Notes under the pieces: generated by a model
The model's database searches: none
The model's input: only the letters and a program-made list of their open reading frames with translations
Told to the model about the DNA's origin: nothing
IMG/VR virus record: IMGVR_UViG_2778261570_000014
Reading direction: 5' to 3' (one strand)
DNA length: 18,682 bases
Source: a virus
Lineage: Duplodnaviria > Heunggongvirae > Uroviricota > Caudoviricetes
Made by a program: the position numbers and the translations under genes
Shown: piece after piece, positions 8,516-18,120 of the stretch
Position numbering within the stretch: position 1 is the first letter of the stretch
How the letters are laid out: each line of letters starts with the position of its first letter

Positions 8516-9337
8516 TTAATAATGGTTAGCCATCCATTCAGATCTAATTGATGGGATAAACTCTCTATTGAGAAAGGGGACGTACAGTGTGGTTGTCACA
8601 TCTGCACCCTCCTTAGCGTTTTTGCAATGTTGCGGAGGCAGGATCAGTCGGCTTGAGCCTCTCTCAATAGACATTTTCAGGCCGTGGCGTAGGTCTTTTT
8701 GCATAAGCTGTATGCGAGCCACAAGCGGGGTAAATTCGGTTTCAAGCGCCATGCTTTCAATGATGTCAAAGCGTCGGTTAGCGGCCTGCGTGAAGTCCTC
8801 CGGATCGTCTTCAAGCGCCGTGCATAAAGCGAGTTCAGCAATTCGCATCCGTGCTACGCCAGCACTGTATTCGGGAGTTTTCATATCAGGAAGTGACGCT
8901 CGCATTCGTTCAAGGAGTTCCGCGCCTTTCCCGGTTAATGGTTTAAGTATCCAGTCAGTTGGTACTCCATTTACTGGTACGTTGGTTTTCACGTAAGGAG
9001 GTACAGTGAGTATTTCTACTGTTTGGGCCAGGTCGCTCAGGTTAATATCTGCATGATGCGTATTACCGCAGTGACTGCACTCATAGGAGTAGGTCATTAC
9101 TGCATCGGGGCGCGAATTAACAAATATCCACCAAAGAGCAGTTCTGCGGTCCTGAACTGTCCAGTTAGCACTGTCGTTAATTTCACCATCCTGCATAGAG
9201 TTAAGGTACTCTGTAGTCGTTGCCTCATCTTCTGCCGGGTTCAGGTCAGAATATTTCAGCGCATCCTTCACGGTAGGGGCGTGGAACTGAATTTCTGTCT
9301 CAGGACGGGAAGGCAATGGGAATTTTGGAATGTTCAA
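8516..9337 (-). CDS. Hypothetical protein (273 aa) with a C-x2-C...HH...N motif; divergently oriented from repA
   Basis: ORF with apparent TTG start at 9337 and a GGAGG Shine-Dalgarno 5 nt upstream; first in-frame Met is about residue 47. Contains YECSHCGNTHHADINL. Function unknown. Confidence 0.5.
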   Translation of the reverse strand: MNIPKFPLPSRPETEIQFHAPTVKDALKYSDLNPAEDEATTTEYLNSMQDGEINDSANWTVQDRRTALWWIFVNSRPDAVMTYSYECSHCGNTHHADINLSDLAQTVEILTVPPYVKTNVPVNGVPTDWILKPLTGKGAELLERMRASLPDMKTPEYSAGVARMRIAELALCTALEDDPEDFTQAANRRFDIIESMALETEFTPLVARIQLMQKDLRHGLKMSIERGSSRLILPPQHCKNAKEGADVTTTLYVPFLNREFIPSIRSEWMANHY

Positions 9338-9442
9338 TTATTCCTCCGAAAAGCAGGTATCTGTTCATTTTCCAGAGGATAGGGAGTGTGTGATTTGCGA
9401 TGGGGATTGAATGAAGATCTTTGCCGGTCGAGAAGCGATTAT

Positions 9443-9461
9443 TGAGGGTGATTTTTACACC
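9443..9461 (+). promoter_or_regulatory. Inverted iteron copy upstream of the origin, probable RepA operator
   Basis: TGAGGGTGATTTTTACACC is the reverse complement of the iteron consensus with two mismatches. Confidence 0.5.
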
Positions 9462-9479
9462 TTAAGTGACGCTACTCAC

Positions 9480-9488
9480 ATATCCACA
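9480..9488 (+). promoter_or_regulatory. DnaA-box-like site (ATATCCACA, 8/9 match to TTATNCACA)
   Basis: Seen in sequence directly next to the AT-rich tract and iterons, the usual Rep_3 origin layout. Confidence 0.45.
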
Positions 9489-9545
9489 GAGTATTTTTAT
9501 AAACCTTTTTCCATTTTTAATCCTTTTTAGATCCTTTTTAGGCGT
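9489..9545 (+). promoter_or_regulatory. AT-rich tract with short phased CCTTTTT-type repeats, candidate DNA-unwinding element
   Basis: CCTTTTTCC, ATTTTTAA and TCCTTTTTAG (twice, 11 bp apart) between the DnaA-box-like site and the iterons. Confidence 0.45.
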
Positions 9546-9583
9546 CGCTGGAGCCAGTAGTGGCGCGGGCTGTAGAGGAGGCT

Positions 9584-9701
9584 GGTGTAAGATTTGCCCT
9601 CAATTAAATACGATCGGTGTAAGATTTGCCCTCAGAAGGTGTAAGATTTGCCCTCAAAAGGTGTAGTAATTGCCCTCAAAGTGGTGTAAAAATTGCCCTC
9701 A
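9584..9701 (+). repeat. Iteron array: five direct 19-bp repeats (consensus GGTGTAAGATTTGCCCTCA) upstream of repA
   Basis: Copies at 9584-9602, 9616-9634, 9638-9656, 9660-9678 and 9683-9701. The first three are identical; copies 4 and 5 differ at 2-3 positions. Spacing 32, 22, 22, 23 bp. Confidence 0.85.
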
Positions 9702-9725
9702 CCATTTGAAGGATCACACAGGGTT

Positions 9726-10481
9726 ATGAACAGAGCGGAATTAACAGCAAAAGCCGTCAGCCTGATTGAGTCAGCGACACCTATTAGTCGTAGTCTGGCA
9801 CAAGCCAATGAGATCACGGAGGCTGCTTATCACCTGACTCGCGACCAAAAGCGACTGTTGTTTATTGTGGTGGGAAGACTTCGCTATGCTTCTAAGGATG
9901 GCGTTCTTGGTTCAGGTGCCTGTGAGTTGACGGTCAACGAATATGCAGAGATGTATAATTTGCCCTCTGCTGAAGCCAGCAAGGATATTCGTAAGGCCAT
10001 TTCAGGGCTTAGCGAGAAGAAAGTTACGATATATAACCCTGATGAATCGACCGAATCAGAAGACAGTTATGAGTCTTATCCCTGGATGATTAAGGATGCC
10101 TATTCACCACGGCGCGGGACTTACATTATTCATCTTAATCCATATCTCATGCCGTTTTTTACTCTGCTTGATAAGAGATTCACAAGGCTGAATTTTACCG
10201 AAGTATCTCGCCTTACAAATCCTTATTCTATGCGGCTTTATGAGTCCTTATGCCAGTACAGGAAGGATGATGGAAGCGGCTTTGCCATACTTGGCGTCGA
10301 ATGGATGCGGGAGCGTTATGGGTTACCAAAAAGCTATCAGCGGTATGCCGAATTTAAGAGAAGTTTTTTAACGAAGGCTGTAGCAGAGATTGAAAAAAAT
10401 ACAAAAATGAAAATAGTCTTCTCAGAGGTGACGGAAGGCGGCAAAGTTACCAGGATAAAATTTACCTATCAGCAGTCTTAA
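9726..10481 (+). CDS. repA: Replication initiator RepA, Rep_3 family (iteron-binding)
   Basis: 251 aa from ATG 9726 (the ORF track starts at an in-frame TTG at 9693 inside iteron 5). Flanked by iterons; resembles pSC101 RepA from memory (LTRDQKRLLFIVVG..., NPYSMRLYESL..., C-terminal KVTRIKFTY). Only gene on the plus strand in a minus-strand cluster. Confidence 0.85.
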   Translation: MNRAELTAKAVSLIESATPISRSLAQANEITEAAYHLTRDQKRLLFIVVGRLRYASKDGVLGSGACELTVNEYAEMYNLPSAEASKDIRKAISGLSEKKVTIYNPDESTESEDSYESYPWMIKDAYSPRRGTYIIHLNPYLMPFFTLLDKRFTRLNFTEVSRLTNPYSMRLYESLCQYRKDDGSGFAILGVEWMRERYGLPKSYQRYAEFKRSFLTKAVAEIEKNTKMKIVFSEVTEGGKVTRIKFTYQQS

Positions 10482-10772
10482 GGGCAATTTTTACACCCCT
10501 CTCAAGGTGTAGAATTTGCCCTTAACGATCGGCAATTGAGGGTAATTTTTACATCTTAATTGCATGTATCTTGTTATTAGCAAGTTGTGTTTTTATATAA
10601 CGTATTGATATGTAAGGATTATGTAAAAAACGCCCTCAACCAATATCGTGCGTATCGTGCATTCTTATTGCGCTTTTTTATTATCATTCACTGTGTTAAC
10701 TGATTGATATTATTGAAATATGTAAAGAATGCCTTCATTGCAGATGGATTGATGATGTAAAAAATGCCCTCA
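10479..10772 (+). repeat. Downstream iteron cluster: at least six iteron-like sites, mixed orientation and degenerate, in an AT-rich region
   Basis: Inverted copy 10479-10497 overlapping the repA stop, direct 10506-10524, inverted 10537-10555, and degenerate direct copies at 10621-10638, 10720-10737 and 10754-10772. No ORF in this region. Confidence 0.7.
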
Positions 10773-10862
10773 AAATTGCGCTACCTTCCCTACCCGCTAT
10801 CGTTGAGGTCGTGGGTGCTGACGGGAAATGAGCAACCCTCCAGCACACATAATTAAAGCTAT

Positions 10863-11570
10863 TCAGAATTTGATCACTCCACTCACAGCCCCCTTTAACG
10901 CGCTTGTAGCCATGCCAGCGGCACCGTTGACCAAAGCAGAAACACCTGAGCCTGCGGATGTGTATTTCTGGAAAGTGATTGGATATGACAAGAACTCTGA
11001 CACCTGGTCTCGTGAGCGGGTGATTTCCCCAAGTTGAGTGGGGAATACGCGCATTTCCTCTTCCAGTTCTTTACCGCCATCCTGAGTTACCCGGTAGAGC
11101 CGGATCTTCATTAGATATTCAGGAGGAAGGTTTATTGTTCCGTCCGGGTTTGTCACGCGGGAACGACGCTCTTTGAACCAGTTCATGATCTTGCCGTCTT
11201 CGGTATCCCTTACGGTCATCGTGACTGGTCCGGCGGTGACGTAGGTTGGCTTGCTGAACTCTACGCTACCTATCACCTTGTTTTCTGTCTCGATATTTCC
11301 GCTGCTGTAGGTGATATCCTTCACGAACATATCGAAACCGTTCAGACCGTCCACTTCAACCGTCCACTGCCATCCCTGGGCGTAACGAATACGCATAGCG
11401 GCAGCAACAATATTTTTCCCGTAGGCAATATCGCTGCTGTAGTTCCCACTTACCCCGCCGCCGGATATTGCTTTATCCAGAATGTCGCTAATGAGGTTGC
11501 TGGTGAATGATTTTGTGTTAAATGACAGTGCGGTGGTCAACGTTCTGCCAACGCTGCTGAAAATACTCAC
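10863..11570 (-). CDS. Hypothetical virion or tail protein (235 aa)
   Basis: Co-oriented with the tail genes; apparent GTG start at 11570 with GGAGG upstream. No motif recognised. Confidence 0.5.
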   Translation of the reverse strand: MSIFSSVGRTLTTALSFNTKSFTSNLISDILDKAISGGGVSGNYSSDIAYGKNIVAAAMRIRYAQGWQWTVEVDGLNGFDMFVKDITYSSGNIETENKVIGSVEFSKPTYVTAGPVTMTVRDTEDGKIMNWFKERRSRVTNPDGTINLPPEYLMKIRLYRVTQDGGKELEEEMRVFPTQLGEITRSRDQVSEFLSYPITFQKYTSAGSGVSALVNGAAGMATSALKGAVSGVIKF

Positions 11571-17962: not shown

Positions 17963-18120
17963 GGTTAAGCCCTAAATTCGGGCGCGGCGTGAAGGTTCTT
18001 TTGACGGGCTAACAATACCTACTTTGTGATTTAGTCAATAGGTTTAGTAAAATAAAATCTATTAACACGCATGTTGTTATGTGATTTAATTTTAATTTTC
18101 TAACACAAATCATTAGAGTT
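17963..18120. promoter_or_regulatory. AT-rich divergent intergenic region, probable promoters for the capsid gene and the plus-strand gene
   Basis: Markedly AT-rich; TTGACG at 18001-18006; TGTGATTTA occurs twice (about 18026 and 18081). No confident -10/-35 assignment. Confidence 0.35.

Follow-up and report, generated by a model that had tools for sequence, protein, structure and literature searches.

A probable plasmid replication origin related to mini-F ori2, with an additional inverted iteron, in a D6-like phage-plasmid of Escherichia coli

The closest known system to the replicon described here is, judging from its sequence, mini-F ori2/repE/incC (IncFIA) and not pSC101. The AT-rich region of F contains 8-mers with the consensus TTTTTA(G/T)A (PMC4081077), and residues N22, F146 and Y172 of its initiator RepE are required to bind single-stranded origin DNA (PMC10602881). 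Between the iterons and rep, F possesses a promoter-operator (F sequence L003 8402-8431) in which an 8-bp half-iteron inverted repeat overlaps the rep promoter and is bound by initiator dimers. P1 oriR/repA/incA (IncY) is likewise the replicon of a P1-family phage-plasmid, and consists of DnaA boxes, an AT-rich region, a GC spacer and five iterons, with rep close behind and an iteron cluster downstream; annotation places its repA promoter within the iterons of the origin. pSC101 has three iterons, followed before repA by two operator inverted repeats (IR1, IR2) that overlap the repA promoter; it requires an IHF site between its AT-rich region and its iterons. Lastly, in RK2 oriV a single inverted iteron is separated from the main iteron cluster by an AT-rich/GC-rich region. 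E. coli, Salmonella and Shigella commonly carry D6-like phage-plasmids. Their rep gene has a putative annotation, and the presence of "iteron sequences" is all that one paper notes (PMC6799933). We found no experimental dissection of a D6-like prophage replicon, although the phage D6 genome paper may already describe the repeats.

The DNA analysed, hereafter called the window, is a stretch of 18,682 nucleotides (IMG/VR record IMGVR_UViG_2778261570_000014). It shares 100% identity with non-mobilizable E. coli plasmids of about 90 kb and 99.6% identity with phage D6; the element is a D6-like, P1-family phage-plasmid of E. coli. Positions 9441-9725 are probably its plasmid-state (prophage) replication origin, a diverged relative of mini-F ori2. 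The adjoining initiator gene, rep (9726-10481, plus strand), specifies a protein of 251 amino acids, the same length as its F homolog and with the same two winged-helix domains (Pfam Rep3_N and Rep3_C; E 3e-29 and 1e-15). Rep shares 50% identity with F RepE across 228 amino acids (E 2e-86) and is matched by the RepE structures 1rep and 2z9o (E about 1e-73). Its N28, F152 and Y178 are the invariant counterparts of RepE N22, F146 and Y172, the residues required to bind single-stranded DNA. By comparison, the identity to pSC101 RepA is merely 27% over 154 amino acids, and a pairwise BLASTP revealed no significant similarity to P1 RepA (E 0.057). The initial annotation is supported in recognizing an iteron-type plasmid origin with an adjacent initiator gene. 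An initiator of at least 95% identity is encoded in 108 plasmid records. Equating the replicon with the "p0111" type was considered and dropped, p0111 being placed in the literature at the P1 repA position, where it is described as substituting for repA (PMC9603915). Two ORFs (9466-9666, plus strand; 9632-9817, minus strand) which cross the repeats were disregarded as spurious.

All of the elements that the initial annotation had described within 9443-9701, namely five iterons, an inverted copy, a DnaA box and five T5 tracts, are present. The origin core is made up as follows.

9472-9488, plus strand: tandem DnaA boxes, a degenerate CTACTCACA (9472-9480) followed by ATATCCACA (9480-9488)
9489-9542, plus strand: AT-rich DNA unwinding element with five T-rich 8-mers and one GATC, at 9530
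9494, 9506, 9514, 9524 and 9535, top strand: the T-rich 8-mers TTTTTATA, TTTTTCCA, TTTTTAAT, TTTTTAGA and TTTTTAGG, respectively
9543-9583: GC-rich variable spacer
9584-9602, plus strand: iteron 1, identical to copies 2 and 3
9616-9634, plus strand: iteron 2, identical to copies 1 and 3
9638-9656, plus strand: iteron 3, identical to copies 1 and 2
9660-9678, plus strand: iteron 4, three mismatches
9683-9701, plus strand: iteron 5, two mismatches; contains TGTAAAAAT (9685-9693)

The first three iterons have the 19-bp sequence GGTGTAAGATTTGCCCTCA, and seven matches to it with no more than three mismatches occur in the window where 0.01 would be expected. Start-to-start distances are 32 bp between iterons 1 and 2, then 22, 22 and 23 bp, the phasing reported for them originally. 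The DnaA box ATATCCACA matches at eight of nine positions, as do five sites in the window against 4.5 expected, i.e. chance level; the 8-mers, likewise, are not enriched over the whole window. The support for both lies in position and conservation and not in frequency. The box lies at -246 relative to rep, those of relatives at -243 to -305, and it aligns with the second of the two tandem boxes of F. Two of the 8-mers match the F consensus exactly and three nearly, all on the top strand, and their T5 tracts, which begin at the five positions given above, are spaced at 12, 8, 10 and 11 bp. The GC content drops to 28% in this AT-rich region and climbs to 62% in the spacer which follows. An Rfam scan returned a chance-level miRNA match alone.

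In an alignment with F ori2 and with relatives from Pantoea and Erwinia the origin core is collinear, and it is this shared order of DnaA boxes, AT-rich element, GC spacer and iterons which identifies mini-F, not pSC101, as the closest system. Both F and the D6-type origin have tandem DnaA boxes, T-rich 8-mers accompanied by GATC, a GC spacer and 19-bp iterons ending in ATTGCCCTCA, spaced at about 22 bp with one gap of 32-33 bp. The D6-type origin has five iterons to the four of F, and the long gap falls between iterons 1 and 2 where in F it falls between 2 and 3. The iterons differ in their left half as well (GGTGTAAG in D6-type, TGTGACAA in F), which suggests an incompatibility specificity separate from that of IncFIA. 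With P1 the general layout is shared, but the iteron sequences are unrelated, the AT-rich region of P1 contains five GATC sites rather than one, and the P1 replicon is located beside parAB after gene 23, that of D6-type elements between tub and pmgB. The architecture is that of an F-type core and a P1-type regulatory layout, with an extra inverted initiator site, and is mildly instructive. It does not overturn current understanding, being an ordinary iteron origin with lineage-specific twists. Kinship with mini-F does provide a testable model for the replication, copy control and incompatibility of D6-like elements, and predicts sequences which could displace or cure them.

The locus had originally been described as of the pSC101 type. 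Both origins do follow the generic succession of DnaA box, AT-rich region, iterons and rep, and both initiators belong to Pfam Rep3, but a strict pSC101-type origin, working through IHF bending and RepA dimer operators, is extremely improbable here. Apart from the lower similarity of RepA (27% over 154 amino acids as against 50% over 228 for RepE), the pSC101 iterons are unrelated and none shares ATTGCCCTCA. The IHF consensus WATCAANNNNTTR is absent from 9440-9725 at up to one mismatch, including the interval between the AT-rich region and the iterons. Neither sequence inspection nor alignment with F revealed inverted repeats between the iterons and rep, where IR1 and IR2 would have their counterparts.

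Conservation was assessed in 18 distinct D6-type sequences by counting the variable positions in each element. None of the 9 positions of the DnaA box varies; the AT-rich region has 4 variable positions among 53, the iterons 10 among 113 and the spacers between elements 40 among 93. Against the spacers the Fisher p values are 2e-7 for the DnaA box and AT-rich region jointly, 1e-8 for the iterons and 2e-5 for the inverted iteron described below, under the assumption of independent positions and sequences, neither of which holds here. By homology with F, from which the binding of Rep and DnaA, the melting and the copy control are carried over onto the homology and layout observed here, initiation would begin with host DnaA at the tandem boxes (9472-9488) and RepE-like initiator monomers, the product of 9726-10481, filling the five iterons, where the 22- and 32-bp spacing would align them approximately on a single helical face. 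Melting would follow in the neighbouring T-rich unwinding element (9489-9542), and the iteron-bound initiator would hold the top-strand 8-mers, compare the "loop-back" complex of F, with host helicase loaded next.

To the left of the DnaA boxes is an element for which F has no equivalent.

9443-9461, minus strand: isolated iteron in inverted orientation (minus strand GGTGTAAAAATCACCCTCA), with the GGTGTA end towards the DnaA boxes and unwinding element
9462-9471: invariant extension TTAAGTGACG, adjoining the inverted iteron

Complementarity to the iterons amounts to 79-89% for the top strand of the inverted copy (TGAGGGTGATTTTTACACC). With an iteron matrix the copy reaches 23.6 bits, where the best scores in 100 shuffles had a mean of 6.7 and a maximum of 18.3. 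Its ...ATCACCCTCA variant recurs among genuine origin iterons, both in F and in a Pantoea relative. The rep start codon is 265 bp downstream of the copy, on the other side of the DnaA boxes and the unwinding element, and no convincing sigma-70 promoter overlaps the copy. On both counts the label of operator, which it had been given, was set aside. We consider it most likely that this copy is a putative auxiliary Rep-binding site of the replicon, which would close the left side of the DnaA-box/unwinding region and present inwards the same end as does the main array. It may act there as positive architecture, in negative pairing or as a roadblock. Among the 17 other RepE-family loci mapped it has no characterised counterpart. 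A comparable case of a lone inverted initiator site flanking an unwinding element would be RK2 oriV, although its initiator TrfA and its iterons are unrelated to those described here.

The inverted copy might instead be a functionless relic, for instance the last member of an ancestral downstream array captured with the cassette. Those 17 loci, comprising F, 14 from genomes and 2 from metagenomes, all lack it, relatives bear long inverted-repeat arrays after rep, and the D6-type sequences form a tight, recent clade. Over about 63%-98% identity no initiators intermediate between the D6 and Pantoea types were found in the genome, viral, plasmid and metagenome collections, so the age of the inverted iteron is not traceable. 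A relic is nevertheless a very unlikely reading, as none of the 23 positions of the inverted iteron varies where, in the same sequences, the GC spacer varies at 13 of 40 positions and the adjacent 9397-9440 spacer, which is more variable than any other part of the region, at 20 of 44. All 40 of 40 D6-type loci, moreover, have the 32-nt block 9441-9472 exactly.

Iteron-like sequences also occur within and after rep.

9950-9968, plus strand: conserved iteron-like site inside rep, at +224
10479-10772, mixed orientation: six conserved iteron-like repeats in a cluster that resembles F incC
10479-10497, minus strand: post-rep repeat
10506-10524, plus strand: post-rep repeat
10537-10555, minus strand: post-rep repeat
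10620-10638, plus strand: post-rep repeat
10719-10737, plus strand: post-rep repeat
10754-10772, plus strand: post-rep repeat
10598-10610 and 10697-10709, both minus strand: IHF consensus sites in the post-rep cluster

As in F, the cluster begins at the rep stop codon, and the offsets are nearly equal (+753, +780, +811, +894 and +993, as against +758, +780, +813, +904 and +987 in F incC); the repeats of F are all inverted, those of D6-type are mixed in orientation. These repeats are likewise conserved while the spacers diverge. Three or four of the D6-type repeats persist in plasmids of the CP042620 type. The site inside rep is, with the inverted iteron, an addition relative to F, and in three lineages it has stayed unchanged at synonymous sites. 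By analogy, copy number is probably limited through titration and pairing involving such extra iterons, in which the six post-rep repeats, the site in rep and the inverted copy would all take part.

How rep is transcribed is less evident from the sequence. Sigma-70 scans of both strands of 9250-10950 gave no credible promoter for either rep or pmgB, the divergent gene; the best rep candidate is a weak extended -10, the TGTAAAAAT of iteron 5. The gap between iteron 5 and the rep ATG is just 24 nt and contains no inverted half-site and no promoter-like site. Since there is neither room nor an inverted repeat for a dimer operator of the F type, which D6-type elements lack, autorepression of rep is probably exerted through the iterons. 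This is a guess by analogy with P1, in which the initiator would repress rep by occupying the iterons, and a rep promoter inside the iterons, as annotated for P1 repA, is the arrangement we infer here. It is unlikely that the inverted iteron forms part of a rightward rep promoter-operator further upstream, with transcription starting in the AT-rich region under the control of Rep at 9443-9461 and of DnaA. CTCACA (9475-9480) and TATAAA (9498-9503), separated by a 17-bp spacer, match the consensus at 9 of 12 positions (10 of 12 in diverged variants, where the -35 is TTCACA), the end of the inverted iteron is 12-14 bp upstream of this -35, and we found no superior promoter for rep. However, the -10 is without the conserved final T, such hexamers arise by chance in AT-rich unwinding elements, the leader of about 215 nt would run across five initiator-bound iterons, and neither F nor the relatives from Pantoea and Erwinia retain the motif.

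The replicon differs from that of F in having no sopABC after it and in lying within a phage late operon, the relevant parts of which are the following.

8516-9337, minus strand: pmgB-like late morphogenesis gene (273 amino acids) with a TTG start and a GGAGG ribosome-binding site
9374-9396, minus strand: candidate D6-type late promoter of pmgB, AAATCACACACT-CCC-TATCCT, with the -10 at 9381-9376
9397-9440: variable spacer, the left junction of the replicon cassette
10863-11570, minus strand: tub-like tail tube gene

A comparison of the regions upstream of R, pmgB and gene 23 yielded the motif AAATCACAnAsT-N3-yATnnT, which occurs in phage D6 in six exact copies and two with two mismatches, as against 0.72 expected. 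Every copy is closely upstream of a late operon and in the same orientation as it. The P1 late-promoter pattern (AAGTTACTT-N4-TAnAAT, from P1 promoter LPs as annotated), from which the D6-type motif differs, gave nothing meaningful in the window. The pmgB copy of the motif predicts a transcript start near 9369, relative to which the inverted iteron occupies roughly -74 to -92, beyond the core promoter.

It had been suggested that the inverted copy lies where the promoter of the divergent gene would be expected, and that the initiator may regulate this gene as well. The position of the site in the pmgB-rep intergenic region, its strict conservation and its restriction to the lineage in which the replicon is beside pmgB are all compatible with an operator through which the initiator also controls a phage late gene. 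We regard this as a very improbable reading, and neither suggestion was upheld: pmgB has its own late-promoter motif, common to seven other D6 late operons and 47 bp closer to the gene than is the inverted iteron, and the 44 bp between the two are the variable 9397-9440 spacer noted above. The best leftward sigma-70-like candidate over the site matches at only 8 of 12 positions. A sister plasmid with another replicon in the same slot keeps the promoter segment and is without the inverted iteron. We assign the inverted copy to the replicon and not to the pmgB promoter. There is also a small chance that the inverted iteron and the mixed-orientation repeats act as initiator-bound boundaries, which would insulate the origin from late transcription or couple initiator occupancy to the tail-gene late promoter; either would link plasmid maintenance directly to phage morphogenesis.

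In P1, tub directly abuts pmgB; about 9397-10862 is therefore taken to be a replicon cassette inserted in the late operon. Homology with the sister plasmid stops near 9393, and the exchange of the cassette in that plasmid lies at about 9394. The cassette divides the late operon, and a different replicon can take its place at this junction.

The 1.2 kb surrounding the origin region (9443-9701) is 100% identical to DNA of ~90-kb non-mobilizable E. coli plasmids, has matches in 119 Escherichia, Salmonella and Shigella plasmid records, and shares 99.6% identity with Escherichia phage D6, a member of the P1 family whose prophage state is a plasmid. The origin elements are located in the 388 bp gap between pmgB and the initiator gene rep; further iteron-like sites lie within and after rep.

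Features of the D6-type replicon and its left neighbour
8516-9337, minus strand: pmgB-like late morphogenesis gene
9443-9461, inverted: upstream copy of the iteron
9480-9488: DnaA box ATATCCACA
9494, 9506, 9514, 9524, 9535 (starts): five T5 tracts, about one helical turn apart
9584, 9616, 9638, 9660, 9683 (starts): five direct 19-bp iterons, spacing 32, 22, 22 and 23 bp
9726-10481, plus strand: rep, 251 aa, "putative plasmid replication initiation" in the D6 annotation
9950-9968, plus strand: intragenic iteron-like 19-mer GATGTATAATTTGCCCTCT, at +224 of rep
10479-10772, orientations -,+,-,+,+,+: six iteron-like sites, the first overlapping the rep stop codon
10598-10610 and 10697-10709, minus strand: IHF consensus matches in AT-rich spacers of the downstream cluster

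Every origin element listed in the initial annotation was recovered in its place. With up to three mismatches allowed, the iteron consensus is matched seven times across the window versus 0.01 expected, and the inverted iteron scores 23.6 bits on the iteron matrix (best scores in 100 shuffled controls: mean 6.7 bits, maximum 18.3). Counted over the whole window, the DnaA box and the T-rich 8-mers occur only at chance frequency; where they lie and how well they are conserved is what supports them. A degenerate first DnaA box, CTACTCACA (CTATTCACA in diverged D6-type variants), adjoins the listed one, and the G+C content is 28% across the T5 tracts and 62% over the next 40 bp. The 11 nt that link the inverted iteron to the DnaA boxes (9462-9472, TTAAGTGACGC) show no variation in any D6-type sequence; CCTTAAGTG is also found upstream of the DnaA boxes of a Pantoea plasmid.

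The initiator possesses winged-helix Rep3_N and Rep3_C domains and shows 50% identity over 228 aa to F-plasmid RepE (E 2e-86), with E values of about 1e-73 to the RepE structures 1rep and 2z9o. Its identity to pSC101 RepA is 27% over 154 aa, and it has no significant similarity to P1 RepA (E 0.057). As read from its sequence, F ori2 is composed of tandem DnaA boxes (TTATCCACTTATCCAC), a T-rich stretch that includes tatttttataa and tttttagatct, a GC-richer spacer, four iterons (TGTGACAAATTGCCCTCAG; spacing 21, 33 and 22 bp), a repE promoter carrying an inverted-repeat operator, repE itself and, after it, incC with five inverted repeats. The window aligns collinearly with this arrangement from the DnaA boxes through the last iteron, its listed DnaA box falling on the second of F's two. 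The replicons of the Pantoea plasmid and an Erwinia contig are intermediates (60-63% Rep identity) and are likewise collinear with F ori2. In F the 8-mers of the unwinding element follow the consensus TTTTTA(G/T)A, and iteron-bound RepE binds the T-rich top strand (PMC4081077, PMC10602881); on the corresponding strand the window carries exact copies TTTTTATA and TTTTTAGA and three near copies. The RepE residues essential for single-strand binding, N22, F146 and Y172, are N28, F152 and Y178 in the window Rep. These comparisons establish homology of both initiator and origin core to mini-F, and the RepE homology, collinear core and conserved residues together make mini-F ori2/repE/incC the closest known system. 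The initial annotation matched the order of elements to pSC101-type origins; the likeness to pSC101 goes no further than that generic order, the initiator being nearer to RepE (50%) than to pSC101 RepA (27%).

By analogy with F, DnaA would occupy its boxes and initiator monomers the iterons, the T-rich element would melt, and iteron-bound initiator would capture its top strand, the helicase then being loaded. Rep residue D124 (codon 10095-10097) aligns with RepE R118, whose change to proline yields constitutive monomers (PMC10602881); it is of possible interest because the window origin has no dimer operator.

The other 17 RepE-family loci mapped (F, 14 genome and two metagenome loci) have no inverted iteron in the upstream DNA scanned, which extended to at most 800 bp in the genome loci and to about 1.2 kb in those from metagenomes; on this comparison only the D6-type lineage has the inverted copy. 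Position, phasing and selective conservation are evident for all the elements. Conservation of the inverted copy within the lineage is strict: among 18 distinct D6-type sequences 0/23 nt of the inverted iteron and 0/31 positions of 9441-9471 are variable, and the corresponding values are 20/44 for the spacer to its left, 13/40 for the GC spacer and 7/9 for the 9-bp segment between iterons 1 and 2. A 32-nt block, ATTGAGGGTGATTTTTACACCTTAAGTGACGC, is exact in all 40 D6-type loci having upstream DNA. The inverted copy carries a variant (...ATCACCCTCA) that recurs in bona fide origin iterons, both in F (iteron 2) and in the Pantoea plasmid; initiator monomers therefore very likely bind the copy well. 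The GGTGTA end of the inverted copy points toward the DnaA boxes and unwinding element, and those of the five direct iterons face the melting region from the opposite side, so that this region is symmetrically bracketed. Our best guess is that the inverted copy serves the initiator as an auxiliary site, joining the origin complex or engaging in pairing, with an effect that may be positive or negative.

The initial annotation instead placed the inverted copy where a promoter for the divergent 273-aa gene, here identified as pmgB, would be expected. Comparison of the regions upstream of the late genes R, pmgB and gene 23 revealed a common motif, AAATCACAnAsT-N3-yATnnT, present in the window at 1610-1632, 9374-9396 and 18013-18035, all on the minus strand. 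The complete D6 genome contains six exact copies and two with two mismatches versus 0.72 expected (19215, 25221, 27727, 31511, 38115, 45491, 54124 and 72100). All are intergenic, directly upstream of and co-oriented with late operons, namely those of the lysozyme-like orf16, prt, ddrB, lydA, R, pmgB, gene 23 and mat. At two of the operons, R and gene 23, P1 has a late promoter in the corresponding place, that of R being annotated. The motif is very probably the D6-type late promoter, and probably Lpa-dependent; it is unlike the P1 late-promoter pattern AAGTTACTT-N4-TACAAT, which is absent from the window.

In the pmgB copy (9374-9396) the -10 is at 9381-9376, which places the inverted iteron at about -74 to -92, beyond a variable spacer. 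Between pmgB and tub, in the same slot, the sister plasmid CP042620.1 (2560-4250) carries a different iteron replicon, whose Rep has 294 aa and which includes a TTATCCACA box and, as in P1 oriR, GATC-rich repeats. Its homology with the window spans the promoter segment, 9339-9393, and stops there, and it lacks the inverted iteron. The inverted iteron thus belongs to the replicon cassette rather than to the pmgB promoter. CP042620.1 also still has the final three or four of the D6-type iteron-like repeats, in DNA homologous to 10533-10860; this suggests that one replicon replaced another and left incompatibility sites behind.

The cassette boundaries are also apparent against P1, in which tub and pmgB abut, 14 bp apart (11374-11389). 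In the compared region of the window (9338-10862) about 1.5 kb, roughly 9397-10862, is interposed between them, and the replicon is therefore a cassette within the phage late operon. Relative to P1, pmgB has also acquired its own, separate late promoter. On the minus strand no intrinsic terminator was evident past tub; late transcription may therefore continue into the replicon in the antisense direction.

Departures from F were mapped with a family matrix on F, 14 other RepE-family genome loci and two metagenome loci. F-like replicons have four iterons and a promoter-operator of ~75 bp ahead of repE, whereas the D6/Pantoea/Erwinia group has five iterons, 24-45 nt to the start codon and no inverted half-iteron repeat. 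Pantoea, Erwinia and two metagenome relatives have the intragenic site at exactly +224 as well, and F lacks it; among three lineages of ~60% protein identity none of the site's five synonymously changeable codons varies, versus 11/15 conserved flanking codons (Fisher p about 0.008, by hand). The downstream offsets +753, +780, +811, +894 and +993 are close to those of F incC (+758, +780, +813, +904 and +987), but the repeats are of mixed orientation in the window and all inverted in F and the Pantoea-type relatives. In D6-type sequences 35/138 positions of the six sites vary versus 143/236 in the spacers (p = 4e-11); the sites are conservation islands amid a strongly diverged background. The two IHF sites, out of three exact consensus matches in the whole window, are both retained in strongly diverged variants.

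Promoter scans found no sigma-70-like promoter of quality for rep. One weak candidate, an extended -10 (TGTAAAAAT) inside iteron 5 with a 25-nt leader, would allow repression of rep through iteron occupancy; the P1 annotation places the repA promoter inside the origin iterons. The other, CTCACA and TATAAA with a 17-bp spacer (9475-9503), overlaps the DnaA boxes and has TTCACA as its -35 in diverged variants; its -10 lacks the final T and a leader of 215 nt would be needed. The layout suggests that rep would be autoregulated via the iterons, and that the repeats after, within and upstream of rep could control copy number through titration or pairing. The replicon has an F-type core, resembles P1 in its regulatory layout and adds an inverted site peculiar to its lineage. 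The rep gene was already annotated, and that of a D6-like Salmonella plasmid has been mentioned as "associated with iteron sequences" (PMC6799933).

The initiators of D6 type cluster in a tight clade, with 108 plasmid records at at least 95% identity, one at 60-80% and 2424 RepE-type records below 60%; no intermediates turned up in viral and metagenome collections. A natural variant, NZ_CP127005.1 (1440-1838), has three of the five origin iterons, 1 and 2 being deleted; an IS5 is annotated right beside its origin on the pmgB side, and an IncY replicon is also aboard. Contig CALWLV010000256.1, with a 100% identical rep, was assigned to an uncultured Roseburia genome, probably a binning error. 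The 36.5-kb E. coli plasmid NZ_CP027382.1, also with an identical rep, may be a deletion derivative kept by the D6-type replicon alone.
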